This document shows positions 1,633-33,039 of a stretch of DNA of 34,106 nucleotides, piece after piece (the stretch's first letter is position 1; the number at the start of each line of letters is the position of its first letter). The stretch is from the UHGV virus genome UHGV-0112930; one strand, written 5' to 3'. Under the pieces are notes generated by a model. That model did no database searches. It had not been told where the DNA came from and was given only the letters and a program-made list of their open reading frames with translations. This DNA is from a virus. Made by a program: the position numbers and the translations under genes.

Positions 1633-4600
1633 GCGTCGTATCCCCCTTGATCGCTGTAGTTACTCCTGACTTTTGCCTTCAGCCTGCGTTCACGTTCATC
1701 AAGCTGGCGGGCCACCTCCCGCGCAATATCCTGCGCACTTTGTCCAGGCTGCGTCTGGATGATGATCTGCGTCGGTGCCTCAATCCTGTAAACGGGCGGC
1801 ACAGTGGCTGCGCGACTCACCATCGCTTCTCCACCTTTCGCGGGAAGTGCCAAAGGGTGCAACGGTGGAAGCTCTGCTGGCGCGGCAGCAACGCCCATCA
1901 TTCCGGCAACAACGGCAGCCAGTGCAGCTGTATTTCTCCGGCTGGTCACATTTGCCGGGCCGTTAACAATTTCCGGCCCGTTTTCACCGACGATGCCAAA
2001 CTGCCCGCGCGGGATATACCCGCCGCTGTCATACATCCCCGCAAAGCCATATCCCCATGATGGAAAACCACCCAATGGCATCATCACTTTACCGTCTGCA
2101 TTCACCGTCGCAGGTTGCTGACGCGTCACGCTTTCTGGCAGTTTTGCCTTTGCGGCCTCTTTACTGACAATGCCGAGCTTCTCCAGCAACCAGGAAACGC
2201 CGGATTTCAGGGAGTCCAGCGGATGCATGACCATATTCAGCCCTTCCGCCAGTGCCTCCCCGAATCGTCGCCCCATTGCCGCTGCACTCTGCAGTTCGGC
2301 AGAGGTCGACTTAACGGGCGTCAGCAGATCAGTAAACCAGCCCCACAGCGCCTGTACTTTGTCGCCAATCCACTGAAACACAGGCTTAAGTGGTTCGAAT
2401 GCAGCACTGATGGGACCTGCCGCCGCTTTGAATCCTTCCACCACGCCACCGAGAAATGCGGTGATGGGTTGCCAGTATTTCCAGACAACCAGCGCCACGC
2501 CCGCCAGTGCAGTAACCACAAGACCTATCGGACTGAGCAGAGCACCTAACAGACCAGATACGGCATACAGAGCAACGCGCAGCATCGCCAGCGGACCGGA
2601 TGCCAGCACTCGCAGCACCGCGCCTGCGGCGGTCAGTCCACCGCGCAGTACCGCCAGTGGATTCATAAACATCACAGCAACCGCACGTAAACCGGATAAT
2701 CCAGACCGCAACAGTGCAACTGGCGCACCTGCTACAGTTTTCAGGACATTTCCCGTCAGTGATGCCGTACGGCGCAAAGATGACAACGGCGCAGTAAGTA
2801 AACCCGCAGCATTGCCCGATGAAGCAAGCCCGCGTCGCAGCAGTGCCAGTGGAGCGCCAGCCAGCCAGGACAACGCGTTGCTGGTTCGTGTTACTGCTGC
2901 CGTAACGGAAGGTAACGTTTTGATGCCCAGCACAGAGAATCCCAGACGGATGACTGCCAGCGGCCCCAGCACTGCAGCCAGCGCCACAGCCAAGGTGCCG
3001 AGGCCTACGGTAACCGCAGCCACAATAGCGGCTACTTTCATCAGTGTGCCCGTCAGTTCCGGGTTAGCTTCCACCCAGCGACGCAACGCTCCCGTAACGC
3101 TTTTCACCGTGTACAGAATATCCATCAGCGGCTGGCGCAGCGTTTCGCCCAGGCTGCTGAAGGTATTCTGCGCTCCGGTTTTAACCAGCAACCACTGAGC
3201 AGAAAGTGAGTCTTTGTTGATGTCGGATTCTTTCTGCATGGAACCGAGCGCATCATTGCCCGCTGTCAGTTTTAGCTGGCGCTGCAGTTCCGGAAGGTTG
3301 TTTGCCAGTTTTGCCGCGTCATCACCAAACTCTTTACCAAACAACATGGTCATGGCAGACAGACGCTTGTCCTGCGGCAGTGCGTTCACCTTCTCCAGCA
3401 CACGCTGGATAGTTCCCATCGCATCCTTCGTCATCTGCTTTTCAATCACTTCAGGATTGAGTTTCAGCAGATTCATCCCTTCAAAGAAACTCTTGCTTTG
3501 CATGGTGGCAATGGATAATTCACGCACCATCGCGTTTGCTGCACTGGCTGCAACCTCCGGCGCAGCGCCCAGTGTCAGAAAGGTGGAACCCAGTGCCGCC
3601 GCTTTACGATAATCCAGACGGTCAGCCACACCGCCCAGACGTTGCATCACATCAATGATGTCCGCCCCTTTCGACATGGCGTTATCATCCAGATAGTTCA
3701 GCGCATCGCCGAGCTGTTCAATATTGCGGGTAGGTATTTTGTAGAGCTGGGCGATTTTCCCCAGACTTTCTGACAGTTCATCCGCTGGCAGCTCAAAGGC
3801 TGTTGCCGCCTTTGCTGCCGTACTGGCGAAGGCCAGCAGGTCACGTTTCTGGTCTTCCCAGCTGTCGTCAGGGTTTGCGACGTTCATGCGCGCACCACCT
3901 TCAACCAGTGCAGCGAAGTCCACCGCACCGTTTTCCATCGGCAACTGTTCGCTGGCAGCCTTGATGGCATCCTGCATTTCATAAAAACGTGCAGTGCGGT
4001 TGCCATTATCGTCACGCAGACCATTGACCTGCTTTGCCACACCTTTCATGGCATCTTCCATGCTGGTATAGCTTTTTACTGCCGCCATCACTGGTGTCCC
4101 CATTGCCAGCCCTGCAGCCGTGGTGGTGGCTCCGGCTCCTGCAATACGATCACGCACCTCCAGCGAACGGGCATAACTGGCACGCGCCGCATTCATCCTG
4201 CGCTGAGCTTCCCCCAGTCGCTTCAGCCGCGCCTCCTGTTTCGAAAGTTCCTGGTTATAACGTGATGTTTCACGGGCTAAACGGGCAGTTGCTCCCGCAT
4301 CATCTTTCGCAGAAATTCCCGCCCGGTACAGTTCTGCACGCACAAGCGCCGTTTGCTTCTGCAAATATTTTTGTTGTTCTTCCAGGCGTTGGACTGCCAG
4401 CGTTTGCCGACCTAAAGCCACAAGGTGCCGTTGTGATGGTTGTTCCATCGCTTCCAGCTCAGAACTAAGCAAATTTGCCTTCTGTCTGGCATAGTTCAGC
4501 CTGTCGCCTAACTTCTTGTTATCGGCCTGCAGCTTGCGAAATTTTTCCAGGCTGTTACCCGCCTGATTGAGTTGCTTTAATGCGTCACGGGAGTTTCTGA

Positions 4601-7029: not shown

Positions 7030-7602
7030 TCAGGGAGATTCATTGCTCTTATTTGCCGGAAATTTTCTATAAATGGTAGAAACGCCTACATCAAAAATCA
7101 GTGCAATACGCTGTCTTGATTCTCCGGCCTCGAGTAAACGCCCAATCTGTGCCCACTGTTCGGTGGTCAACTTAGGACGGCGTCCACCTACTCTGCCTTT
7201 GGCACGAGCTGCAGCCAGCCCTGCCCTGGTACGTTCAACTATCAGTTCGCGTTCCATTTCAGCCAGGGCACCCATGACATGAAAAAAGAAACGGCCCATT
7301 GGGGTGCTGGTATCAATACTGTCAGTCAGGCTTCGGAAATTCACGCCTCGCTGACGCAACTCTTCTATCAGCGTAACAAGATGCCGCATACTGCGCCCCA
7401 ACCTGTCCAGCTTCCAGACAACCAGCGTGTCTCCTGCCGATAGTGTCCTGAGCAGTTTTTTCAACCCTGGTCTGTCGGACTTAGTGCCACTGATTTTATC
7501 CTCAAAAATCCGCTCACATCCCGCGCAGTTCAGTGCATTACGTTGCAAATCGGTGTTCTGGTCATTTGTTGACACGCGTACATAGCCAATAAGCATGATC
7601 AT
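7030..7602 (-). CDS. Site-specific DNA invertase, serine recombinase of the Hin/Gin/Pin/Cin family
   Basis: 190-aa ORF MIMLIGYVRVSTNDQNTDLQRNAL...; resolvase-type N-terminal catalytic domain with the serine in YVRVSTNDQ and a C-terminal HTH; very similar to e14 Pin as remembered; next to a segment flanked by inverted hix/gix-like sites. Confidence 0.9.
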   Translation of the reverse strand: MIMLIGYVRVSTNDQNTDLQRNALNCAGCERIFEDKISGTKSDRPGLKKLLRTLSAGDTLVVWKLDRLGRSMRHLVTLIEELRQRGVNFRSLTDSIDTSTPMGRFFFHVMGALAEMERELIVERTRAGLAAARAKGRVGGRRPKLTTEQWAQIGRLLEAGESRQRIALIFDVGVSTIYRKFPANKSNESP

Positions 7603-7651
7603 CCCCCTGAATAAAAACCGGGGATGATGCCAGTTAGCCGTAATCGCTGCA

Positions 7652-7677
7652 TTTTCTTAAACGTTGGTTTGGGAGAA
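7652..7677. repeat. Left inversion crossover site (hix/gix-like 26-bp site)
   Basis: tttcttaaacgttggtttgggagaa; its reverse complement shares the 15-nt core CTTCTCCCAAACCAA with the right site. Half sites fit the TTCTxxxAAACC / GGTxTxxGAxAA pattern of Hin/Gin sites. Confidence 0.6.
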
Positions 7678-8157
7678 GGTTCGGCATTACCTGTTGGTGT
7701 ACCTGTTCCATGGCCTTCAGCCACTCCGCCGACAGGCTGGCTGAAATGCAACGGTGCAGCTTTTTCTGCTGAAGAATACCCGGAACTGGCAAAGGCTTAT
7801 CCGACAAATAAATTGCCTGATTTACGTGGTGAGTTTATTCGTGGCTGGGATGACGGGCGTGGAGCTGACAGTGGTCGGGGATTATTAAGCTTTCAAAAAG
7901 CCACTCTGGTTGAAAGTTTTGGTCTGGTCAGGTCACCAACCACTGGCTCTTATCGTCTGGTTACCAGACCGACAGAAACTGTTTCTGATAATACGTCTAA
8001 CTATATGACGACTGATTATGATTCCCGTGAAGGTTTATATTCCCCTGCAACAGCATACCCCTCTATCGAATTGCCACCAACTGGAGCAGGCGCAGGGGCT
8101 GGTTTTAGGGTTCGACCAAGGAATATTGCATTTAACTATATTGTGAGGGCTGCATAA
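7663..8157 (+). CDS. Silent alternative tail-fibre C-terminal cassette (expressed only after inversion, fused to H constant region)
   Basis: Open frame ...NVGLGEGSALPVGVPVPWPSATPPTGWLKCNGAAFSAEEYPELAKAYPTNKLPDLRGEFIRGWDDGRG..., a tail-collar-type fibre tip. It has no start codon or promoter of its own after the crossover site; the upstream part of the 7624 ORF is an artefact. Confidence 0.7.
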   Translation, partial: VGLGEGSALPVGVPVPWPSATPPTGWLKCNGAAFSAEEYPELAKAYPTNKLPDLRGEFIRGWDDGRGADSGRGLLSFQKATLVESFGLVRSPTTGSYRLVTRPTETVSDNTSNYMTTDYDSREGLYSPATAYPSIELPPTGAGAGAGFRVRPRNIAFNYIVRAA

Positions 8158-8759
8158 TGGATAACGCCATATTAAATAGCGAGATTATCGCCACCAAAGC
8201 AGGGAATATTACCGTCTATAACTATGATGGTGAAACTCGAGAATATATTTCCACTTCAAATGAATATCTTGCTGTTGGCGTCGGTATCCCTGCATATTCC
8301 TGTTTAGATGCCCCTGGCACACATAAGGCGGGTTATGCTATCTGCCGTTCGATGGATTTAAACTCATGGGAATATGTGCCAGACCATCGCGGTGAAATCG
8401 TCTATAACACCGAAACGGGAGACGCCAAAGAAATCACAACTCCGGGTGATTACCCCGAAAAAACAACCACTATCGCCCCGTTAACGCCATACGATAAATG
8501 GGATGGTGAGAAATGGGTGACGGATACCGAGGCACAGCATAGCGCCGCAGTAGACGCGGCAGAAGCACAACGTCAGTCACTGATTGATACTGCAATGGCT
8601 TCCATTAGTCTGATTCAACTGAAATTGCAGGCCGGACGGAAGTTGACGCAGGCAGAAACAACCCGACTTAACGCCGTGCTGGATTACATTGACGCGGTGA
8701 CGGTAACAGATACCAGCACCGCGCCGGATGTCATCTGGCCTGAACTGCCGGAGGCGTAG
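8157..8759 (+). CDS. Tail fibre assembly chaperone, alternative copy (partner of the silent cassette)
   Basis: 200-aa ORF directly following the silent fibre cassette; C-terminal ...LDYIDAVTVTDTSTAPDVIWPELP mirrors the C-terminus of the minus-strand Tfa. Confidence 0.8.
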   Translation: MDNAILNSEIIATKAGNITVYNYDGETREYISTSNEYLAVGVGIPAYSCLDAPGTHKAGYAICRSMDLNSWEYVPDHRGEIVYNTETGDAKEITTPGDYPEKTTTIAPLTPYDKWDGEKWVTDTEAQHSAAVDAAEAQRQSLIDTAMASISLIQLKLQAGRKLTQAETTRLNAVLDYIDAVTVTDTSTAPDVIWPELPEA

Positions 8760-9174
8760 GCCATTCAATATCTGGAGCACTGGAAGTATCGACCAGTTCC
8801 AGTGCGTCCAGATAATCCAACCACAAATTATATTGCGCCAGTTCCTCACCTTTCAGACGACCAATAGCGGCTTTACCGGGCCATTGCTTACTGTTCATGT
8901 GTTCGTTGGCCTGATTAAGCAATAATTGTCTTTCTGATTCTGCCTGTTGAATAAGTTCTTCATGTGATGGTTGAGGTATTTCAGCCCATGTGGGAAAACC
9001 ATTTACCCCTGCAACTCGGATTTTCCCTTGTGGCGGTTTCGCCATATATTTTACAGAAATGTTATCAGGAATATCTAATGCATCAGCGGGCCATGTTCCA
9101 TTTACTTCATAAGTATTTTTTAAATTAACAGCATAAAATGCATTTTCCGAAGGGGAATAAATATATTGATTCAT
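8731..9174 (-). CDS. G: Tail fibre assembly chaperone (P2 gpG-like), active orientation
   Basis: 147-aa ORF immediately downstream of H; C-terminal ...LWLDYLDALELVDTSSAPDIEWPTPP; 3' end overlaps the convergent alternative copy by about 29 nt. Confidence 0.85.
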   Translation of the reverse strand: MNQYIYSPSENAFYAVNLKNTYEVNGTWPADALDIPDNISVKYMAKPPQGKIRVAGVNGFPTWAEIPQPSHEELIQQAESERQLLLNQANEHMNSKQWPGKAAIGRLKGEELAQYNLWLDYLDALELVDTSSAPDIEWPTPPAVQAR

Positions 9175-19015: not shown

Positions 19016-20782
19016 ATGAACACCACACTGACACCCGCAGATCTCGATCCCCGTCGGCAGGCCATGCTGCTGTACTTTCAGGGATACCGCGTAGCCCGCA
19101 TTGCTGAAATGCTGGGCGAGAAAGTTGCAACCGTTCACAGCTGGAAAAAACGCGACAAGTGGGGTGACTATGGGCCGCTGGATCAGATGCAGCTCACCAC
19201 CGCCGCACGCTACTGCCAGCTCATCATGAAGGAGCACAAAGAAGGGAAAGATTTCAAAGAGATTGACCTGCTGGCGCGCCAGTCGGAGCGCCACGCGCGG
19301 ATCGGCAAGTTTAACAATGGCGGCAACGAAGCCGACTTAAATCCTAACGTCGCCAACCGCAACAAGGGCCCGCGCCGTCAGCCGGAAAAGAATGTCTTCA
19401 CCGATGAACAGATTGAGAAGCTGGAAGAAATCTTCCATTCCTCCATGTTCAACTACCAGCGCCACTGGTGGGAAGCCGGAAAAACCAACCGCATCCGCAA
19501 CCTGCTGAAGTCACGCCAGATCGGCGCGACCTTTTACTTTGCCCGTGAAGCCCTGATTGACGCCCTGCTTACCGGACGTAACCAGATTTTCCTTTCTGCC
19601 AGTAAGGCACAGGCTCACGTCTTTAAGCAGTACATCATCGACTTCGCCAAAGAAGTCGAGGTGGAGCTGAAAGGCGATCCGATGGTGCTTCCTAACGGAG
19701 CCACGCTTTACTTCCTCGGCACCAATGCCCGCACGGCCCAGAGTTACCACGGCAACCTGTATCTGGATGAATATTTCTGGATACCGAAATTCCAGGAGCT
19801 GCGCAAAGTGGCTTCCGGTATGGCTATTCACAAAAAATGGCGACAAACCTATTTTTCCACGCCATCCAGCCTGACACACAGTGCTTATCCGTTCTGGTCC
19901 GGTGCACTGTTCAACCGTGGGCGCAACAAAGCTGACAAGGTGGACATTGACCTGTCCCACAGCAATCTGGCCCCCGGCCTGCTGTGCGCAGACGGGCAAT
20001 ACCGCCAGATAGTCACCGTAGAAGATGCGGTGCGCGGCGGCTGTAACCTGTTCGACCTTGACCAGTTGCGCATGGAGTACAGCCCGGACGAATACCAGAA
20101 CCTGCTGATGTGCGAGTTCGTGGACGATCTCGCGTCCGTGTTCCCGCTCAGCGAACTGCAGGCGTGCATGGTGGACAGTTGGGAAGTCTGGACCGACTTT
20201 CATGCACTGGCCCTGCGCCCGTTTGGCTGGCGCGAGGTGTGGATCGGTTATGACCCGGCAAAAGGTACGCAGAACGGCGACAGCGCCGGATGCGTGGTGG
20301 TGGCACCGCCAGCCGTGCCAGGCGGTAAGTTTCGCATTCTTGAGCGTCACCAGTGGCGCGGGATGGACTTCCGTGCCCAGGCGGACGCCATCAAAAAACT
20401 GACTGAACAGTACAACGTGACCTATATCGGTATCGACTCGACAGGTGTCGGTCACGGGGTTTATGAGAACGTGAAAGCGTTCTTTCCTGCCGTCCGGGAG
20501 TTTGTCTACAACCCCAACGTTAAAAACGCCCTGGTACTCAAGGCCTACGACATTATCAGCCACCGCCGTCTGGAGTTTGACGCCGGACACACCGACATAG
20601 CGCAGTCCTTTATGGCAATCCGTCGCTCCACCACCGCCAGTGGCAACCGCCCGACCTATGAAGCCAGCCGCAGCGAAGAAGCCAGCCATGCCGATCTGGC
20701 CTGGGCAACGATGCACGCACTGTTTAACGAACCGCTGCAGGGCGAATCCGCCAATACCAGCAATATTGTGGAGATTTTTTGA
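19016..20782 (+). CDS. P: Terminase ATPase (large) subunit P (P2 gpP-like)
   Basis: 588-aa ORF; translation recognised as P2 P-like large terminase. Confidence 0.9.
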   Translation: MNTTLTPADLDPRRQAMLLYFQGYRVARIAEMLGEKVATVHSWKKRDKWGDYGPLDQMQLTTAARYCQLIMKEHKEGKDFKEIDLLARQSERHARIGKFNNGGNEADLNPNVANRNKGPRRQPEKNVFTDEQIEKLEEIFHSSMFNYQRHWWEAGKTNRIRNLLKSRQIGATFYFAREALIDALLTGRNQIFLSASKAQAHVFKQYIIDFAKEVEVELKGDPMVLPNGATLYFLGTNARTAQSYHGNLYLDEYFWIPKFQELRKVASGMAIHKKWRQTYFSTPSSLTHSAYPFWSGALFNRGRNKADKVDIDLSHSNLAPGLLCADGQYRQIVTVEDAVRGGCNLFDLDQLRMEYSPDEYQNLLMCEFVDDLASVFPLSELQACMVDSWEVWTDFHALALRPFGWREVWIGYDPAKGTQNGDSAGCVVVAPPAVPGGKFRILERHQWRGMDFRAQADAIKKLTEQYNVTYIGIDSTGVGHGVYENVKAFFPAVREFVYNPNVKNALVLKAYDIISHRRLEFDAGHTDIAQSFMAIRRSTTASGNRPTYEASRSEEASHADLAWATMHALFNEPLQGESANTSNIVEIF

Positions 20783-21807
20783 TGGGAAAGAGTAAGAAAA
20801 ACCGCGCAGCGGCGATGAATCAGATCCAGCATAAAAGCCAGACTTCAGCCGAAGCATTCAGCTTCGGCGATCCCGTTCCTGTTCTGGACCGTCGCGAACT
20901 GCTGGACTATGTGGAATGCGTACAGATGGACCGCTGGTATGAGCCGCCTGTAAGTTTCGACGGCCTGGCGCGAACATTCCGCGCCGCCGTACACCACAGC
21001 TCACCGATTGCAGTAAAGTGCAACATTCTGACCAGCACCTATATCCCTCACCCGCTGCTCAGCCAGCAGGCTTTTTCACGTTTTGTGCAGGACTATCTGG
21101 TATTTGGTAACGCCTACCTGGAGAAACGCACGAACCGCTTCGGTGAAGTTATCGCCCTTGAACCTGCGCTGGCAAAATACACCCGACGCGGGTTAGACTT
21201 GGATACCTACTGGTTTGTGCAATACGGCATGACTACGCAGCCGTATCAGTTCACGAAAGGCAGCATCTTTCATCTGATGGAACCGGATATCAACCAAGAG
21301 ATCTACGGCCTGCCCGGTTATCTTTCTGCCATTCCGTCAGCCCTGCTCAACGAGTCCGCCACGTTGTTCCGCCGTAAGTATTACATCAACGGCAGCCATG
21401 CAGGTTTCATCATGTACATGACCGATGCCGCGCAGAACCAGGAAGATGTGAACAACCTCCGCAATGCGATGAAAAGCGCCAAAGGTCCAGGCAATTTCCG
21501 AAACCTGTTTATGTACTCGCCTAACGGCAAAAAGGACGGGCTTCAGATTATCCCGTTGTCAGAGGTCGCAGCGAAGGATGAGTTTTTGAATATCAAGAAC
21601 GTTAGCCGGGATGACATGATGGCGGCGCATCGTGTGCCGCCGCAAATGATGGGGATTATGCCTAATAATGTTGGGGGGTTTGGGGATGTAGAGAAAGCCA
21701 GTTGCGTTTTTGTTCGTAACGAATTGATGCCGCTACAGAAACGGCTACAGGAACTAAATAGATGGTTGAAAGATGAAATTATCCGTTTTGCGACATACTC
21801 ATTATGA
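20779..21807 (+). CDS. Q: Portal protein Q (P2 gpQ-like)
   Basis: 342-aa ORF overlapping the P stop by 4 nt; translation recognised as P2 Q-like. Confidence 0.9.
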   Translation: MMGKSKKNRAAAMNQIQHKSQTSAEAFSFGDPVPVLDRRELLDYVECVQMDRWYEPPVSFDGLARTFRAAVHHSSPIAVKCNILTSTYIPHPLLSQQAFSRFVQDYLVFGNAYLEKRTNRFGEVIALEPALAKYTRRGLDLDTYWFVQYGMTTQPYQFTKGSIFHLMEPDINQEIYGLPGYLSAIPSALLNESATLFRRKYYINGSHAGFIMYMTDAAQNQEDVNNLRNAMKSAKGPGNFRNLFMYSPNGKKDGLQIIPLSEVAAKDEFLNIKNVSRDDMMAAHRVPPQMMGIMPNNVGGFGDVEKASCVFVRNELMPLQKRLQELNRWLKDEIIRFATYSL

Positions 21808-21839
21808 CGACAATATGTTCGCTGAACAGTAAAATATCA

Positions 21840-21866
21840 AGAAGGCCTCTTACAAGGCCTTCTTTT
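21840..21866. terminator. Bidirectional rho-independent terminator between convergent Q and the 582-aa cargo gene
   Basis: Hairpin agaaggcc-tcttacaa-ggccttct (8-bp stem) followed by TTTT on the plus strand, and by a moderately T-rich run on the minus strand. Confidence 0.55.
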
Positions 21867-21868
21867 AG

Positions 21869-23617
21869 TTAGAATGCGGATTTGATTTTTTTCTCAAATG
21901 CCTCATATACAGGCTGGTTCATTTGGGCCGTTGCAGTAATAAGCTGTGAAAAATTTGATATACAATCTTTAACTTTTGTAGGACTTTTCAACCCTCCTTC
22001 AACCAGTGCAGGCAGCAACTGATTACTTAAAGCCAGACACACATCTACAATTGGCTCCCAAATACTTTCAGCCTGAGAAGGAGAGACTGTACTTCCAAAC
22101 GAAACTCTAAATAAATTAGGAACGGGACGGCCCAAAAAGTTTTCCAAACATTCGGCAATAGCCGAGCACAATAAAGGTATTGAACCACGATGCCTGAGAT
22201 ATCCCAATTGAGCGCTATCATTTTTTGAAAGAGTATCTTTCTTTGCCAAAGCTATTTTCTTGTTCTCAATACACCGCATGAGAGAATACGCACAAACAAT
22301 ATGTGAAGCTTTTGTACTGTCATTAAAAATCTTAGAATAATGAGAGTCATTAGTCCAAATTGCAGATCGCTGATTATAAGCTACCGTCGGCTCTCCATGG
22401 AAACTCATCAAAGCTTGACCAACAGTATAAGAAGGCAGTAGATTAGTTTTTCGACGAATGACACTTTCAGCACCTCCTCGTCTTCCTCCATCATATTCAG
22501 CATCAGGAATAGAAGCAAATTCATTTTTAAGTCGTTTTTGAATTTTGTCTGTGCTTCTGAAATCAGATGCTTCAACTTTATTCTGACTGTTATTATACTG
22601 AATTATATTCTGAATTAGATCAGCATCCGCATCTTTGACTTTTATAAATCTAGCTTGGACTTTAACTGATTCTGGAGGTAATCGTGGCAGCGTTCCTAAA
22701 GCACCTGTTGTCTGTGCTCCATTAACTATTGACATCCCTCTGATTTCAAGATTCTTTGATGCTTCATTGAATTTATATTCATGAACCAAAACAGTTACGC
22801 CATTATTGTATGCCCAAAATTCTGATGCTGAATTTTCCGCACTGTTACGGATACCATTATTGATATTTGAATCAGATGACCTTGATCCAAGGTAGTCTCT
22901 AACATTTGCTGAAAATATTTTTAATTTATGCTTTTTGTACGCTCTAGCTAAATCTCTTCCCTGAATGGTAGTACAGAATGCATTCCAATTATCTCCTTTT
23001 ATTTCGTAGCCACCATCACTGACCTTAATATTGAAAATCTCATCAACCAGTATTGGTGATAGTGATTCACTATACCATTCCGTCAACTTTTCAGTGCCTA
23101 CCTCCATTGCATGCACTTGTATTTTAGCATCTTCAAAATCATGTTTTAAAATAGTTGTTGCTGTCTGCTGAACCGTAATTAGCTCTTGAGCCACATTTGT
23201 TGAAGATGGTAAGTTATGAACATACCAAACGTACAGAGTTTTAATTTTCCCTTGTTTGATTGATGTCCGTATCTGTTGAGCAGAAGATTTTATTCTATCG
23301 GGTACATCATGCAAATCTCTTTGCAGAAGCCATGCTAAAGCAATATTAAGATCACTCGCTTTATTTGCTGGAGCTTCCTGTCTATCTTTGCTTGAGAAAT
23401 AGCATTGAGCAAGTACAGCAAATTCTTCTTCTTCATTAATATACACAAGGTCACATTTCTTATCGTCATGTCCATCGGTAATGGACTCTGCTGCGACACT
23501 ATCAATGTCATCAATTCTAAAATGTAATGCTAACGCAAACAAAGCCAGTCCATTATCACCATACGATTTCAAATCTTCTCTTGCAGAATAGGCTTGGTTC
23601 CAGGTACTCATTATCAC
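21869..23617 (-). CDS. Large uncharacterised cargo protein (582 aa), candidate anti-phage / abortive-infection-type protein
   Basis: Long uninterrupted ORF in AT-rich DNA, unlike the GC-rich phage core, inserted between the Q terminator and the cos site. No P2 structural counterpart at this position. Contains NVRDYLG, EFWAYNNGVT and IVNGAQTT motifs. Confidence 0.7.
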   Translation of the reverse strand: MIMSTWNQAYSAREDLKSYGDNGLALFALALHFRIDDIDSVAAESITDGHDDKKCDLVYINEEEEFAVLAQCYFSSKDRQEAPANKASDLNIALAWLLQRDLHDVPDRIKSSAQQIRTSIKQGKIKTLYVWYVHNLPSSTNVAQELITVQQTATTILKHDFEDAKIQVHAMEVGTEKLTEWYSESLSPILVDEIFNIKVSDGGYEIKGDNWNAFCTTIQGRDLARAYKKHKLKIFSANVRDYLGSRSSDSNINNGIRNSAENSASEFWAYNNGVTVLVHEYKFNEASKNLEIRGMSIVNGAQTTGALGTLPRLPPESVKVQARFIKVKDADADLIQNIIQYNNSQNKVEASDFRSTDKIQKRLKNEFASIPDAEYDGGRRGGAESVIRRKTNLLPSYTVGQALMSFHGEPTVAYNQRSAIWTNDSHYSKIFNDSTKASHIVCAYSLMRCIENKKIALAKKDTLSKNDSAQLGYLRHRGSIPLLCSAIAECLENFLGRPVPNLFRVSFGSTVSPSQAESIWEPIVDVCLALSNQLLPALVEGGLKSPTKVKDCISNFSQLITATAQMNQPVYEAFEKKIKSAF

Positions 23618-23694
23618 TCCTTAGTAATAAAGTTTTAGCGAAGGTTATCTCTAAGAAGGTACATTTTCAATTCCATTTATCCCTCCAGCGCGCG

Positions 23695-23713
23695 CTCGTA
23701 TCCCCGCCACGCC
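23695..23713 (-). other. Putative cos site (cohesive-end sequence, 186/P2-like)
   Basis: Reverse complement reads GGCGTGGCGGGGATACGAG; the first 13 nt equal the phage 186 cohesive end GGCGTGGCGGGGA as remembered. Orientation matches Q being the cos-proximal gene. Confidence 0.5.
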
Positions 23714-23762
23714 TGCCCGCTTTATGTAGTGGTTTTCATGCACCTGCATGATCTACGCAAAA

Positions 23763-23784
23763 GCCCGCCAGAACTGGCGGGCCT
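23763..23784 (-). terminator. Possible rho-independent terminator (minus strand) downstream of the lipoprotein gene
   Basis: Hairpin gcccgccag-aa-ctggcgggc followed on the minus strand by TTTTG. Confidence 0.4.
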
Positions 23785-23886
23785 TAACACAAAAGATCCT
23801 CAAACGATCATGCGATCTCATGCAGCATAGACATGCGCGTTTATGCAGAATGTGCAAAATCGTAACATACTCAGTAAGCGTGAAAC

Positions 23887-24564
23887 CTAGAACGTGACAG
23901 CCTTGTCAAAGCCAGAAATAATTGTATAAGAAATAGACGAGTTATCAGCCTTGTTCACTTTGAACTTGGCACCTTTGTAAGCGATAACATCACTTCCCTT
24001 AGAATCTACAGAAAAATCTGTTGTAAATGCTGCACGAGCCATATCGTTTGCAAATTCACGATAGGTGAACTTCATTACACCGCCTGCATTTCCATTGTAT
24101 TCGATAGTCTTAACCAATGAATTACTCACTCGACACAGCCCATCAGGAACACGTTTGATAGAAATTTCTGATGCAGTATAAGAAGTGCCATTTGGCGGTG
24201 ATATCTCATTTTTTGCAGCATCGTAGCTAACATAATCAACATAGTTACCGATTTGCCCATAGAGATTTTTTAACGCAACAGCTTGAGGGTTATGATAATT
24301 GCGGTAAATTCCATTCCCCTCACTGCAATATGTACCAGCAGCGATAGAAGACAATGCACCATTAGCCGCACCAAGTTCTAGTACGTCCGTTTTAAATCCA
24401 GTAGCAGATGTGATAATGGGATCGCCCATGTAGGCGGTAGCACTTTGCCCAATAGCTGGCTTCACCACTTCAATAGCAGTGATATTTCGGTTAGAAGCAT
24501 GTGGCACGCAACCAGTTAGGATTACAGCAAGAGATATTGGTAACGCTACATTATTAATTTTCAT
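23887..24564 (-). CDS. Lipoprotein of unknown function (225 aa), phage cargo
   Basis: Start taken at MKINNVALPISLAVILTGC (lipobox LTGC) rather than the extended ORF start at 24618, which would run through an upstream terminator hairpin. AT-rich gene between cos and the SOS module. Confidence 0.7.
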   Translation of the reverse strand: MKINNVALPISLAVILTGCVPHASNRNITAIEVVKPAIGQSATAYMGDPIITSATGFKTDVLELGAANGALSSIAAGTYCSEGNGIYRNYHNPQAVALKNLYGQIGNYVDYVSYDAAKNEISPPNGTSYTASEISIKRVPDGLCRVSNSLVKTIEYNGNAGGVMKFTYREFANDMARAAFTTDFSVDSKGSDVIAYKGAKFKVNKADNSSISYTIISGFDKAVTF

Positions 24565-24598
24565 TTTTAGCCTATTATTCTTTTCTTGACAAAAAACA

Positions 24599-24623
24599 AG
24601 GCGATATCTGATTGACATCGCCT
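24599..24623 (-). terminator. Rho-independent terminator downstream of the dinI-like gene
   Basis: Hairpin aggcgat-(11 nt loop)-atcgcct followed on the minus strand by TGTTTTTT. Confidence 0.5.
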
Positions 24624-24677: not shown

Positions 24678-24911
24678 TCAATGCAGCCAGCTGTCGTCTT
24701 CCCACACCTTCTGCAAAATTTTCATCACTTGTTTTCTTTCTTCGTCCAGTTGCAGTCCGGTCAGTTCCACACCGTTAGAGCTACCTTTACGGATACGGAT
24801 TACCGTTTTGGGATACAGGGGGCGCAGATTGCGGTAAAGCTCGGATTCAAGGGCGTCCAGGGTAGACTGGCTAATCTTCTGCTCTTTATCGATCATTATT
24901 TCAATGCGCAT
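24678..24911 (-). CDS. DinI-like damage-inducible protein
   Basis: MRIEIMIDKEQKISQSTLDALESELYRNLRPLYPKTVIRIRKGSSNGVELTGLQLDEERKQVMKILQKVWEDDSWLH resembles E. coli DinI (MRIEVTIAK...ISEILQETWESADDWF). Start at the internal ATG, preceded by GAGGTG. Confidence 0.85.
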   Translation of the reverse strand: MRIEIMIDKEQKISQSTLDALESELYRNLRPLYPKTVIRIRKGSSNGVELTGLQLDEERKQVMKILQKVWEDDSWLH

Positions 24912-24921
24912 AAAAGTCACC

Positions 24922-25110
24922 TCAGCTGATGACATCCATTGAGCGGTTGTATTCGTGGCTTCTGATTTTTGCCATGAGTTCATCTGTCAGTTCAGAAACC
25001 CACTGCAGAGCCAGCCCCTTCTCTTCATCACTACACTCACTAGCCGCTACAAGCTTAAGAAAAAAATCAATGCGCTGAAGCTTCAAAGACTCCAAAAAAT
25101 AGTCCTGCAT
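24922..25110 (-). CDS. Small protein (62 aa) co-transcribed with the dinI-like gene, candidate Tum-like antirepressor
   Basis: ORF with strong SD AGGAGGA 5 nt upstream; stop 10 nt before the dinI-like start; LexA box in its promoter. Confidence 0.6.
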   Translation of the reverse strand: MQDYFLESLKLQRIDFFLKLVAASECSDEEKGLALQWVSELTDELMAKIRSHEYNRSMDVIS

Positions 25111-25264: not shown

Positions 25265-27679
25265 TTAATACAGGTTCCGCCACTTATCATCTTCCTGCAA
25301 ACGCTGGTTCCGATAGAAGATACGCAGGCCTGCTCCTGACGGAATACTGCCGCCGCGAAGGAGTAAATCGACCTCTTTCTCGCTGCCATCAAATCCTCTG
25401 GACTTCAGTTCATAGACGAGCTGCTGTCGTTGATGGTCTGTAATTCGCTGTTTGTAGTCTCTACGCCGTTTCGGTTTCACCAGGCGTAACCTTGCAGCCA
25501 GTTCCCGGCGCTCTTTTTTGTTCATACAGTGCAGGTAATCGTGCAACTCCTTGTCATCCATGCGGGTGATATCCGTTCTGGTATCCCCATCAGCTGATTT
25601 GTCTTTCCCTTGTTGGTACAAATTTTCAGCAAGGGGACAGTTATTGCCACGAGTCCAAGGGGCGCAAGCGCCCTGGTCGGCTACCGCCTCCTGAACGTCA
25701 ACGGCCTTACGAACCATTTTCCACTTCACTGCATGAGTGCAGATCTTGCCCTCTGCAATGGGTGACCAGATGCCATAAATACGAATGCCGTGATCGCCAT
25801 AGGCGGTCGGCTCTTCGTTGATTTCATAAGCGGTTCTGATAAGGTGATATTTACGGGGAACCAGTACGCCGCCCTGCTTCATGATGTAGGTGGCAAAACA
25901 ACCAGCATCAGCAGCAGCCAGGATGGCATCAAGGCGCGGGTCATCCAGTATCGGCGCACCTGCTTTTTTGTCACCCTGTTGCCTTGCCGCCTGACCAGCC
26001 AGCAAGCGAAGTTCACGGTAAGCCTGACGTCCCGGAATACCAAAGAAGCGGAACTGCTGAACACGATGCAGAGACGCCCAGGCATTAACGTATTCGGCGT
26101 TATCACGCAGGGATTTACCCGTTTCCTTGCTGATCTCGCCAGCCAGACCACGCCCGTCAATGTTCTTACTGATGTATTTCGCGATGTAGCTTGTCGGTGT
26201 TCCTTTGCGCGGGTTAATCAGCTCAGACTTAAAGCGTGGCCCCGTGTTGTTGCCCAGCTCCTCGCGGTCTACACGGATGGCAAACTTACGCAGTAATGCA
26301 GTGATGGCGCGGCGGTCTTTTTTACGCATGAAGCACATGAGATGCCAGTGCACAGTACCGTCATGGTGCGGCTCAGCCACCCGCACGCCATACCAGCGCA
26401 ACCCGGTTTTGTGCATTGCCTTACGAAATGCAGCAAACATGCCGACCATATAATCGCTGCTTTGTCTTACCGTCGCATTTGTCCAGGTCGGGTTGGGTCT
26501 GCCGTTGTTGAGCGTGGAATGGAAACGTGACGGACAGGTGATAGTGTAGAAAACGGCGCAGTCACCGCGCATTTCCGCGATAAGCTCCAGACCTTTAACA
26601 CAGGCCATCATCTCATTGCGGCGATGCGCAGGGTTGCTGCTGCTGGCGTTTACCACATCCTCCATGTCCAGCGTGTCGCCGTCTTCGTTCACCAGTTCAT
26701 GAGAACGGAAAAACTCCAGCGACTTACGGCGCTGCTCACGTTTATGCATCACGGCTTCATAGCTGACATAGGGAGATGCTTTTTTGCTGACCAGGCAGAC
26801 AGCACGCAACTGCTCTTCCCGCCATTCGCAACGCATCTTCCATAATTTCCGATACCACCAGTCGGCGCACAACATACGCGCCAGCGAACCCGGAATGAGT
26901 TCATAGGGCACGGGTTTACGGCGGTTTCTTTTCCGACGGAGTTGCTCAAACGCAGGTGGGATGACATCCAGACGCAGGGTTTCCGCCGCCACCTTTTCCC
27001 ATGTCTTGCGGATTTCTTCTGGCTTAACGTCATCGGTGGCATACAAATCGCCACAAGCTGCATCAAGGCACATGCTCATATGCGCAGCTACCAGGGTGGA
27101 CAGGCGTTTCACCTGATCCTGACTCATTTCAGGCAGGATCAGCAGGCCCTCCAGCCCTTGATGGCTTGCCATAAAACGGAAAGAAGCAGACAGCTGACTG
27201 TCACGTACACAATCCAGTCGCTCCAGACATGGCTTAATCGTCTCACGCAAATAGCGGGAATAAGCCTTTGGCCTGCCCAGGCTGCTGAAGTATTCGATAC
27301 GTTGCATCAGCGGCTTGCTAATATGGGTGGGCTGGGCGCTGACGTCCGCCAGAATGACCATGTCCGGGTTAAAACGCTGCTGTTCATGCGCCAGCTTTGC
27401 CCGGCTAATGAGCTTATCCTGCTCCATTTCGCGCTGGACAGGATCACGAGATTCATTAAAGAAATAACGCTCCCAGACCTGCTCACTCAGTGCATCGCGG
27501 CGCAGCTGTTCCTGCTCATTATCGGCAGCGTACAAAGTGATCAGGTTTAAAAGTGCAGACTCCGGAGCAACTTCCGCCGGGTCCAGATAAGGGTTAATGG
27601 CCTTTTTCGGGCCGTTCCATGAAAATGCTGCAGCGGCCTCGTTAAAGCCGCTAGAGTTGCTCATATCGTCATGACTCAT
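25265..27679 (-). CDS. A: Replication initiation endonuclease A (P2/186 gpA-like rolling-circle initiator)
   Basis: 804-aa ORF with HUH-type motif [11 protein letters not shown] and tyrosine pair [10 protein letters not shown]; translation recognised as P2/186 A-like. Confidence 0.9.
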
Positions 27680-28533
27680 ACACGCACCTCGTACACAGCA
27701 GAACTATCCACGCCACACGAAGGATCAAATCCCACCCAGCAGCGCGCCCCGGAAACAGCAATGATTTCTGTTGCAGATTTACTCTCGCCAGCCGACACGC
27801 CGATGCTGCGTTTTGCCTTGATGTAGTGGTGAGTGAAATTTCGATACAGCGAACGGATCAGGGATGTGTCACTGTTAGAAACAATGACTGGATGACCTTC
27901 TGATGATCGATATTCAAGAACAGATGCCAGGTGATACTGGTCATCTTCAGTGAAGCCGTCAGTGTGATAGCCGGAAAACGTACCGTCATAAGGCGGATCG
28001 CAATACACCACATCCCCCACCTGCAGCATCGCCAGCGTTTCATCAAAGCTGGCGCAGATAAACGTTGCTCGCTGGGCTTTCTCTGCAAATGCGCGAATTT
28101 CTTTTTCAGGGAAATACGGATTTTTATAATTACCGTATGGAATGTTGAAATGCCCGCTCTTGTTATAACGACATAACCCACGGTAACCATGACGATTGAG
28201 ATACAGGAAATATACCGCTTTCATGAAATCAGTAATTTCAGTGGAGTAATTAAACTCCTGCCTTATGTTGTAATAAGCCACCTCCCTGTTTGCTTCCTCA
28301 AATAAAGCTCTGGCACGAGATATAAACGCCTCGCAATCAGCAGCAACCTTTTTATAGAGGTTGATTAAATCAGGATTAATATCCGCAACAAGATAGCTGG
28401 GGTAATCCGTCTCCATCATCACAGCACAGGAACCCGCGAAAGGTTCAACCAGTCGCGGGCCAGCAGGAAGATGTTTTTTCAGTTCGGACATAATGGCAGT
28501 TTTATTACCCGCCCATTTCAGGATGGTGCTCAT
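27676..28533 (-). CDS. DNA adenine methyltransferase (Dam-like, N6-adenine MTase)
   Basis: Motifs [32 protein letters not shown]; strong resemblance to E. coli Dam. Start taken at [11 protein letters not shown]; stop overlaps the A start by 4 nt. Confidence 0.85.
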
Positions 28534-28832
28534 ACAGCACCTCCTGCAATAACATATCCTAAAGCTTCTAATGGGGTTAATGGGCGAATTGATAGCATCA
28601 CCCATTGTTCTGAAACTGCCATGACGTCATTAACCGGAAGCACATGAGAGATAACAGCGGCCCATTCCCTACCCGTAAATACGCCATGCTTCCATTCGCA
28701 AAGAGAAAGAACATCACCAACTTTATAACCACGATCGTCTTTACGAAGTTCAGCCGTCTTTTGACCTGCAACCACAGCGTTGAAATACTTAGGTGCAATT
28801 TTTAATTGATGGATACGCACTGCCCTTGTCAT
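28530..28832 (-). CDS. DUF3850 / ASCH-like small protein
   Basis: [47 protein letters not shown] matches the remembered DUF3850 pattern; start taken at the internal ATG. Confidence 0.6.
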
Positions 28833-30119: not shown

Positions 30120-30638
30120 TCACAGCAAACCGAATGAAGCACCGAGGCCAGTCACGGTATCAACTGCACTCGCCATCGCAGGATTAGCCTGTAAACGGGC
30201 CTGCAATGAAACAGCAGCCAGCGCCATCAGTCGTGTTACAGAGTTAATGCTGCTGATAGCATCACGACGACCGGCACTAGTTTTTACATCACCAGATACC
30301 GCACCTGCTGCAACACGTCCGATCTCTGCAGTTGCGCTCATGACGTAATGCGGCAGTTTCTCTTTTGCAACCTCATTAATCGGTACACATGGCAGGCAGT
30401 GAATCTGTGCCAGAAAACCATCTACCAGCGTTGAATCTTCAGTCAGATCGGTAAGCAGCCAGATTTCTGGTGCGGTTAATAAATGAGGTTGAGATGGGTT
30501 CAGCTTGTTCCGCAGAATCTGCACATTCATGCCAGCACGTTCTGCCAGTTGCACCAGATTGTGGCGCAGTGCGAATGCACGACAGGCTTCATCAAAATGT
30601 GGATGTTTGGAAACTTGGTAATCAAACATGGTTTTCAA
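30120..30638 (-). CDS. cII: CII-like lysogeny-establishment regulator (phage 186 CII family)
   Basis: [48 protein letters not shown]... resembles 186 CII as remembered; second gene of the lytic early operon after apl. Confidence 0.7.
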
Positions 30639-30693
30639 CTCCGAACTTATCGCAAAATCGAACTCAGCGTCTTATTGCGAAAATAGACGTCTA

Positions 30694-30897
30694 TTAAGCA
30701 GACAAAGCATCAACAGTCAGAGCAGCCAGGTTAATCATTACCTTTTCACGTTTTTTGTCTTTACGAAGACGATGACGAGGTAGTCGGCCATCAGCCAACA
30801 TGTCGTTAATCGTATCAATAGAAAGGCCTGTCAGTTCGCTATAACGTTCGATTGTGACATGTGGTGTATTCAGAGTAATTGAAATGTTAGGTGTCAT
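30694..30897 (-). CDS. apl: Apl/Cox-like excisionase-repressor (small HTH protein)
   Basis: 67-aa ORF, first gene of the early lytic operon, divergent from cI; basic C-terminus. Confidence 0.65.
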
Positions 30898-31042
30898 AAG
30901 GCAACATTCCTTCTAGATATGGCTTGTGGCGAGCCGTTGTTTGTCGTGATTAGTAGTGAAGGCTCCAAAAGAACACTTCTGGTTCAACTTTAAGATCGCT
31001 TTTGGAATCTGTCAACGAATTTTGGATTTCTTTGGAGGACTC

Positions 31043-31612
31043 GTGGATTTCAATAGCGGCGGTAAGAAAGCCATAGAACGTTTAGTTGAAGCATATGGGT
31101 TCGGTACCCGTCAGGCTCTCTGTGATCATTTAGGTGTTTCTAAGAGCACCATGGCAACGCGCTATATGCGTGATATTTTTCCAGCAGATTGGGTAATCCA
31201 GTGCGCCCTTGAAACGGGCACCTCGCTTAATTGGCTAACAACAGGGCATGGTTCAAAGCAAGCATCAGCAAATACAAATACTATAGAAGTAGAAAAATAT
31301 TTATTGTCTGATGGAGCATTGCAGAAAGACGGTTTTTATATTTTTGATAAGGGATTTCTACCCTCTACGTTTAAAAAACCTTTTGTCATCACAGATAACA
31401 ATTCTGAATTTATTTGTGATAAAGAATTTGATGATATACGTGATGGTAAATGGGTAATAAGTATTGATGGCGAAATAACGATCCGTGACATTACTCGTTT
31501 ACCCGGTGGAAGAATCTTCGTCGAGGGTGGAAACAGAGCCTTCGAATGCAAGATAGAAGACATTGAAATAATTGGTAAAATTATAAGTTTAACAGTCAAG
31601 TATGTTAAATAG
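31043..31612 (+). CDS. cI: CI immunity repressor (186 CI-like)
   Basis: ...ERLVEAYGFGTRQALCDHLGVSKSTMATRYMRDIFPADWVIQCALETGTSLNWLTTGHG... resembles 186 CI as remembered. Start proposed at GTG 31043, preceded by GGAGGA; the ORF-track ATG at 30956 would leave no room for operators. Confidence 0.75.
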   Translation: MDFNSGGKKAIERLVEAYGFGTRQALCDHLGVSKSTMATRYMRDIFPADWVIQCALETGTSLNWLTTGHGSKQASANTNTIEVEKYLLSDGALQKDGFYIFDKGFLPSTFKKPFVITDNNSEFICDKEFDDIRDGKWVISIDGEITIRDITRLPGGRIFVEGGNRAFECKIEDIEIIGKIISLTVKYVK

Positions 31613-31819: not shown

Positions 31820-32007
31820 CTTTTGCTTTTATATCTGCGTCTAAAATAAAAATGAGCCGCAGGTTAACCGCAAAAGTTACATGCTCACATAGCAAAAAGA
31901 ATAGCCAACTTCATTATGGCTTCAGTGAGATGTATGGTCGTAGGATTTCATACATTGACACTGGTTATACATACAGTAAAAATGCTCTCTACTGGAGGGC
32001 ATCTTTT

Positions 32008-33039
32008 ATGGCAGTACGAAAACTCACCACAGGGAAATGGCTTTGCGAATGTTACCCCGCCGGACGAAGTGGGCGTCGTGTGCGTAAACAATTCGCCACC
32101 AAAGGCGAAGCTCTGGCTTTTGAGCGTCACACGATGGAAGAAACCGAATCAAAGCCCTGGCTGGGCGAATCAGTGAATCGTCGAACCCTGAAAGACGTGG
32201 TTGAGCTATGGTTCAAACTACATGGTAAATCTCTGACTGCTGGACAGCATGTCTATGACAAATTGCTGCTGATGGTTGACGCCCTAGGCAATCCTCTTGC
32301 AACCGATCTCACCTCTAAAATGTTTGCCCACTATCGAGATAAACGCCTGACAGGCGAGATCTACTTCAGCGAGAAATGGAAGAAAGGAGCAAGCCCGGTC
32401 ACCATTAACCTGGAGCAAAGCTATCTAAGTAGTGTTTTTAGCGAACTATCCCGTCTGGGCGCATGGTCGTATCCGAACCCACTGGAGAACATGCGATAAT
32501 TCACCATCGCAGAAAAAGAGATGGCATGGCTTACCCATGAGCAGATTGTTGAATTACTGGCTGATTGCAAACGTCAGGACCCAATTCTGGCACTGGTAGT
32601 TAAGATATGCTTAAGCACAGGCGCACGCTGGCGTGAAGCCGTAAATCTTACCCGCTCACAGGTGACTAAATACCGAATTACCTTTGTCAGAACGAAGGGG
32701 AAGAAAAACAGAAGCATCCCTATCAGTAAAGAGCTTTACGAAGAGATCATGGCGCTTGATGGGTTCAATTTCTTCACAGACTGCTATTTTCAATTTTTAT
32801 CCGTGATGGAAAAAACGTCTATCGTGCTCCCTCGCGGTCAACTGACACACGTTCTGCGCCATACGTTTGCGGCGCATTTCATGATGTCGGGTGGAAATAT
32901 CCTTGCTTTGCAAAAAATCCTCGGACATCACGACATAAAAATGACCATGCGTTACGCACATCTGGCACCGGATCACCTGGAAACTGCATTACGGTTTAAT
33001 CCGCTGGCAACACTACCAACATCAACAGCAACTGTTTGA
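32008..33039 (+). pseudogene. int: Tyrosine integrase (P2/186 family) interrupted by an in-frame TAA
   Basis: N-terminal part MAVRKLTTGKWLCECYPAGRSGRRVRKQFATKGEALAFERH... ends at TAA 32497..32499. The same frame continues seven codons later with MAWLTHEQIVELL... through a catalytic region with ...HVLRHTFAAHFMMSGGNILALQKILGHHDIKMTMRYAHL. Confidence 0.7.

Follow-up and report, generated by a model that had tools for sequence, protein, structure and literature searches.

A gene lying between portal gene Q and the cos site of a P2/186-like prophage belongs to the AIPR/AbiU family, and it probably encodes a stand-alone anti-phage protein, one of the exchangeable pieces of cargo found in the cos-proximal gpA-gpQ hotspot. 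The window, meaning the whole 34,106-nucleotide stretch that was analysed, is a nearly complete prophage of this type. Reading of the sequence alone had correctly flagged defence cargo in the P2 cos-proximal hotspot. The gene is an AIPR/AbiU defence candidate whose kind, location and exact protein are already catalogued, and no new kind of system is added. The remaining interest is twofold. AIPR/AbiU is mechanistically uncharacterised despite its size (5483 representative clusters at E up to 0.001), with no biochemical mechanism reported in the literature examined, and the clade to which this protein belongs carries a distinctive variant of the nuclease motif, termed here QxY + K84.

The gene and its family

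A 582-aa open reading frame had been claimed on the minus strand, and the ORF listing contains it at exactly 21869-23617. At 37% GC, the chance of a stop-free frame this long is about 1.6e-18, as computed from local base composition; the frame is intact and is a real gene. Its mechanical start, GTG 23617, overlaps a Shine-Dalgarno sequence. From the spacing of this sequence, and from the 1743-bp CDS annotated by RefSeq in E. coli, the true start is likely ATG 23611, giving a protein of 580 aa. The description of the gene as AT-rich was accurate, as its GC content is 37.3% compared with 54.5% for P and Q together. The features of the gene and its surroundings are as follows.

20779-21807, plus strand: portal gene Q (Pfam Phage_portal), with its stop at 21807
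21839-21864, either strand: hairpin AAGAAGGCC-loop-GGCCTTCTT with an 11-bp stem, between the convergent Q and AIPR genes
21869-23611, minus strand: AIPR/AbiU-family CDS of 580 aa, probable start ATG 23611 (the mechanical ORF reaches GTG 23617)
21869-21871, minus strand: stop codon TAA of the AIPR gene
23617-23622, minus strand: Shine-Dalgarno AAGGAG, 5 nt upstream of ATG 23611
23642-23670, minus strand: weak promoter-like element TTGAAA-17 nt-TAACCT (8/12 matches by hand count, below the scan threshold)
23695-23713, minus strand: cos cohesive end, reverse complement GGCGTGGCGGGGATACGAG, with conserved flanks to about 23744
23763-23782, minus strand: GC-rich hairpin GCCCGCCAG-TT-CTGGCGGGC, followed by TTTT on the minus strand

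The earlier note had suggested the AIPR abortive-infection family from sequence motifs, and profile search bore this out. Pfam AIPR (PF10592) was matched with 120.1 bits against a cut-off of 25 (E=2e-34) over residues 235-453 of the 582-aa frame, or 233-451 in 580-aa numbering. The PADLOC profile for AbiU (PDLC02357) was matched with 118.6 bits (E=1e-34), from profile positions 125-451 of 537 to residues 103-453, and PHROG 1841 was matched with 816 bits; 'Abi alpha-like', the label given there, does no more than name a family. AbiU (AbiU1/AbiUi) from Lactococcus lactis is the prototype of both Pfam AIPR and the DefenseFinder/PADLOC type 'AbiU'. Compared by profile, it is likewise a single protein of similar size with the AIPR core in common. 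However, it comes from another host phylum and was carried on a plasmid instead of in a prophage slot, and its profile match leaves out the first 100 residues, where the D-D-QxY motif of the protein studied here is located. The profile match, together with homologues that stand as solo genes in varied contexts, places the gene among single-gene systems of the AbiU type as PADLOC and DefenseFinder define it. The AIPR core is also found in MzaE of the MZA system, and the PADLOC MzaE match (4e-16) is weaker than that to AbiU and covers residues 213-358 only. Identity as MzaE was rejected based on an NCBIfam MzaE score of 67.3 bits against an equivalog cut-off of 1050 and on the lack of MzaA-D neighbours; the neighbouring genes encode the portal, a lipoprotein and DinI.

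The gene had been called uncharacterised, whereas RefSeq already names its product an AIPR family protein. The identical protein is found on 593 public contigs under the name 'MULTISPECIES: AIPR family protein [Enterobacteriaceae]', and the gene is present at a minimum of 99.5% identity in 13 of 5426 complete E. coli genomes. In nine records of Klebsiella P2-like phages the gene and its flanks were found at 98.5% identity, labelled 'abortive phage infection protein' or 'AIPR protein'. It is also present in prophages of carbapenemase-producing Klebsiella clones, which may be of relevance to phage therapy if the protein restricts phages. Outside P2-like phages, full-length homologues stand alone in unrelated settings, such as a small integrative element in E. 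coli and beside uvrA in cyanobacteria, and relatives were found on 109 plasmid records. The best match in the plasmid collection (CP125156.1, 99.7% identity) is a 5.37-Mb Klebsiella pneumoniae record, evidently a chromosome.

The slot between Q and cos

The position of the gene depends on the assignment of cos to about 23695-23713 in the earlier note. Alignment to the P2 cos junction upheld this assignment and with it the argument from position. The cohesive end given in the P2 record is GGCGAGGCGGGGAAAGCAC, to which the proposed site is identical at 14 of 19 bases (5 differences, hand count). A search of the window for the P2 19-mer, exact or with up to 3 mismatches, gave no match, and the site was recovered only through its flanks: when the junction of the P2 right and left ends was aligned with the reverse complement of 23620-23790, GGTGCATnAAAACC...AAGCGGGC, cos and GCGCGCT fell into register. 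From the orientation of this alignment, the AIPR gene and Q are on one side of cos, which would be the left end of the packaged genome, and the gene is 84 bp from cos; replication gene A is found at 25265-27679. Two details on P2 had to be amended. The interval from the Q stop to cos in P2 is 167 bp, not about 120 bp, and holds the terminator tQ, which leaves the point being made intact. The genes tin and old, which had been named as residents of this region, sit across cos in P2, between it and gene A. The AIPR gene itself has no counterpart in P2.

The gene had also been described as convergent with Q behind a bidirectional terminator. This is indeed the arrangement, with Q on the plus strand, the AIPR gene on the minus strand, and the hairpin at 21839-21864 between them followed by T-rich sequence on both strands and terminator-like in both directions. 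On the other side of cos, the hairpin at 23763-23782, whose loop is below the minimum of the hairpin scan and which was therefore missed by it, is likely a terminator that ends the lipoprotein/DinI unit ahead of cos and isolates the AIPR gene. A promoter scan of the minus strand from cos to the AIPR start codon gave no site with 9 or more of 12 matches, and none of consensus grade for independent expression; the sole candidate promoter in this interval would be the element at 23642-23670. A weak promoter-like element is similarly placed on the Q side of cos in Klebsiella phage 4LV2017 (L005, about 4350-4400). The two elements compare as TTGAAA and TTGAAT, a 17-nt spacer in each, then TAACCT and TAGCCT, in surrounding sequence that has diverged. 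It is conceivable from this resemblance that the Q-side cos flank of these P2-like phages has a resident weak promoter (TTGAAw-17-TArCCT) which may drive whatever cargo is inserted. An Rfam search of the window found no known RNA, and a tRNA search found no tRNA.

In P2-like phages the gpA-gpQ interval beside cos has been defined as a hotspot in which anti-phage systems are found (Rousset et al., 2022, PMC9122126), and AbiU has been reported in P2 and P4 (NAR 2026, PMC13586616). Similar to the AIPR cargo of the P2 gpA-gpQ and P4 psu-int hotspots, the cargo described here adjoins cos and occupies the same genomic location. In published hotspot surveys everything from A to Q counts as a single unit, whereas the gene in this prophage can be assigned specifically to the Q side of cos. 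Table S5A of PMC9122126 includes the combination 'hypothetical + hypothetical + AIPR + DinI' with WP_000700647, a lipoprotein-like protein annotated by RefSeq at the homologous E. coli locus; the listed combination thus has its flanking lipoprotein gene in common with the locus described here. An AIPR gene from P4 was also cloned in that work (pFR77); it was placed under 'additional tested systems', not among the validated ones (Rousset et al., 2022, PMC9122126). Its product is 22% identical to the protein studied here and has a canonical QxK motif (QSK).

As in the P2 hotspot, the gene lies between A and Q beside cos, and the cargo varies among related phages. In the related phages compared, the Q-cos junction carries either a retron or an AIPR of 25% identity. 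In Klebsiella phage 4LV2017 the space from Q to cos is taken up by the reverse transcriptase and effector of a retron St85 system, and the flanks are otherwise homologous. The Salmonella phage RE-2010 has the same layout as the prophage in the window, namely A, a 62-aa ORF, DinI, cos, AIPR and a convergent portal gene. Its AIPR (YP_007003507.1) has 554 aa, is 25% identical, carries QFK in place of QxY, and has E at the position equivalent to K84. On the low identity and these motif differences, it represents another AIPR lineage that was acquired independently.

Between cos and gene A, where P2 has tin and old, the prophage carries three minus-strand genes: a lipoprotein-like gene (23887-24618), a DinI-family gene (24678-24983) and a 62-aa ORF (24922-25110, phrog_698). 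The lipoprotein-like product has the lipobox ILTGC, is 225 aa long from the RefSeq start, and falls in phrog_1353 under a label of function unknown. WP_000700647 occurs with different partner cargo in Table S5A of Rousset et al. (2022). The lipoprotein-like gene may be another moron that is open to exchange, perhaps one that codes for a superinfection-exclusion lipoprotein.

Domain anatomy and conserved residues

The full-length structural model has a pLDDT of 85.1; a model of the core only reached 68.7, and its second half is unreliable. Three domains were delimited.

23096-23506, minus strand: N-terminal PD-(D/E)xK-like nuclease-fold domain, residues ~36-172; conserved residues D46, D50, K51, K52, D54, Q69-x-Y71, N83-K84, H132-N133 and E170
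22226-23056, minus strand: central AIPR core of ParB/sulfiredoxin-like fold, residues 186-462 (literature PMC3632139); motifs ANxRDYLG, NNGxT, IVNGAQTT, NNSQNK, DFRSTD and GGRRG
21872-22225, minus strand: C-terminal all-helical domain, residues 463-580 (118 aa)

In the model, the N-terminal domain has the alpha-beta-beta-beta-alpha-beta core of the PD-(D/E)xK superfamily. The central core is predicted to have the ParB/sulfiredoxin (Srx) fold, with a modest match to ParB, and no recognisable relative was found for the C-terminal helical domain. When pieces 1-231 and 430-580 were scanned alone against Pfam at E up to 10, neither gave a match. A Pfam scan of 26 diverse homologues (alignment A4) returned AIPR in 26/26 and otherwise only noise. 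The nuclease assignment is thus one of fold, not of sequence. No solved structure of an AIPR relative was reached through sequence searches; the published AlphaFold model of AbiUi superimposes on FokI. The three parts of the model in which pLDDT falls below 50 (residues 48-50, 239-247 and 342-351) all overlap invariant motifs, which suggests loops that become ordered when substrate binds.

The 235 full-length homologues over which conservation was tabulated came from the 120 closest hits and the 150 best representatives at 50% identity, plus RE-2010.

D46: 220/235
D50: 233/235
D54: 232/235
Q69: 234/235
Y71: 221/235
K84: 232/235
H132 and N133: 232/235 each
G298 and Q300: 235/235 each
T301: 234/235

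The three motifs that had suggested the family (NVRDYLG, EFWAYNNGVT and IVNGAQTT) are all present, and NVRDYLG, NNG and IVNGAQTT are kept across the family. The N-terminal acidic cluster had been proposed as a nuclease-like site. This proposal held in part, as the cluster falls in the predicted PD-(D/E)xK fold and D46, D50 and D54 are near-invariant, but the EEEE run is not conserved. In the model, D54 precedes the second core strand (55-59) and Q69-x-Y71 lies within the third (64-71). These residues occupy the canonical D ... (D/E/Q)xK positions, with a tyrosine replacing the lysine, while both distant AIPRs that were aligned (RE-2010 and P4 pFR77) have QxK. The clade is marked by a small detail that is new, as read from the alignment: the canonical nuclease lysine of QxK is exchanged for QxY, and an invariant lysine is found 13 residues later. 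Its full signature, D50-D54-Q69xY71 + K84 + H132-N133, is found at ~30-60% identity across several bacterial phyla. In two rare, degenerate members of alignment A4 (P0217 and P0270), most of the signature residues were lost together.

The pattern of QxY with a conserved K84 fits a catalytic lysine relocated to the start of the next helix, where K84 may substitute for the missing one. Relocation of the catalytic lysine occurs in other PD-(D/E)xK enzymes. IVNGAQTT is located where a strand passes into a helix, as is DGQQR in DUF262, but in N297-G298-A299-Q300-T301-T302 the arginine of the ParB/Srx GxxR and DGQQR type is replaced by T in 234/235. Taken to its furthest, this would make the clade a mechanistically distinct single-protein immune nuclease, in which the lysine migrated from strand 3 to the next helix and a ParB/Srx-like switch lacking the arginine controls activity, with the resident Q-side promoter in addition; we consider this extended version doubtful.

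Proposed function and other features of the prophage

For expression from the prophage, the trigger, nuclease activity and a protection phenotype, we infer the following scheme. In the lysogen, the AIPR protein would be made from a short transcription unit that serves it alone. The central core would act as a sensing or nucleotide/nucleic-acid-binding switch, and the N-terminal domain as a nuclease effector that cuts nucleic acid of the superinfecting phage or of the infected cell, the latter amounting to abortive infection. The helical C-terminus would provide specificity or oligomerisation. The AbiU prototype lowers plaquing efficiency 10- to 100-fold and delays phage transcription, which is a modest, abortive-type effect. 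The conserved-residue map (D50, D54, Q69, Y71, K84, H132, N133 and NGAQT) supplies concrete mutants for a first mechanistic study, and the P2-borne copy sits in easily manipulated E. coli and Klebsiella prophages.

The closest alternative is a type IV modification-dependent restriction enzyme similar to GmrSD/BrxU, in which a ParB-like NTPase with a nuclease destroys modified phage DNA and confers immunity instead of abortive infection. This mode is mechanistically close to the scheme above. However, GmrSD/BrxU (DUF262 + DUF1524) has its nuclease, an HNH of the DUF1524 type, at the C-terminus and carries DGQQR, whereas the protein described here has PD-(D/E)xK at the N-terminus and NGAQT without the arginine. 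Profile scans gave no sequence match to DUF262 or DUF1524, and AbiU, with its weak abortive-type effect, supplies the sole known phenotype of the family. Restriction of modified DNA is judged unlikely, if the best placed of the alternatives.

It was also considered that the gene is an inert or decaying moron whose nuclease site was lost by the change of K to Y. The canonical lysine is missing, and the integrase of the prophage has an in-frame stop, which could indicate a decaying element. Against this, the ORF is intact, the identical protein is spread over its 593 contigs across Enterobacteriaceae, and QxY + K84 is itself kept across phyla at the identities given above, which argues for purifying selection on an alternative site, not decay. 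This conservation makes an inert remnant very improbable. Least probable is a role in serving the phage, as a ParB-like or DndB-like DNA-binding regulator or a packaging accessory at the neighbouring cos: the predicted ParB/Srx fold, the AIPR-type N-terminal region shared with the regulator DndB and the short distance to cos would accord with it, but distribution and base composition speak against it, since the gene is absent from P2 and from close relatives with a retron instead, is foreign in GC content, and has homologues in cyanobacterial chromosomes, small integrative elements and plasmids with no phage packaging genes nearby, and a conserved nuclease-fold domain would be unexpected for a mere regulator.

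Several further features of the prophage were recorded. The integrase (31852-33039, plus strand) is interrupted at 32497-32499 (...NPLENMR*FTIAEKEMAWLTHEQ...), so that its Int_N and catalytic domains lie in two ORFs of the same frame; its best E. coli match (98.3% identity) is annotated intact. The prophage may thus be unable to excise and be a fixed carrier of its cargo. In the tail region, a serine invertase (Resolvase + HTH_7; 7030-7602, minus strand) adjoins an ORF for a tail-fibre C-terminus that contains a Collar domain (7624-8157, plus strand), and next to these are two tail-fibre assembly genes in opposite orientation (8157-8759, plus strand; 8731-9174, minus strand). The segment 7030-9174 looks like a Gin/Cin-type invertible host-range segment. 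Immediately downstream of gene A, a D12-class N6-adenine DNA methyltransferase that P2 lacks is encoded at 27676-28605 (minus strand) and may protect the phage genome from restriction. Finally, the immunity region (30120-31612) encodes a CI-type repressor (Phage_CI_repr + Phage_CI_C) and a CII/CP76 regulator, which places it closer to phage 186 than to P2.
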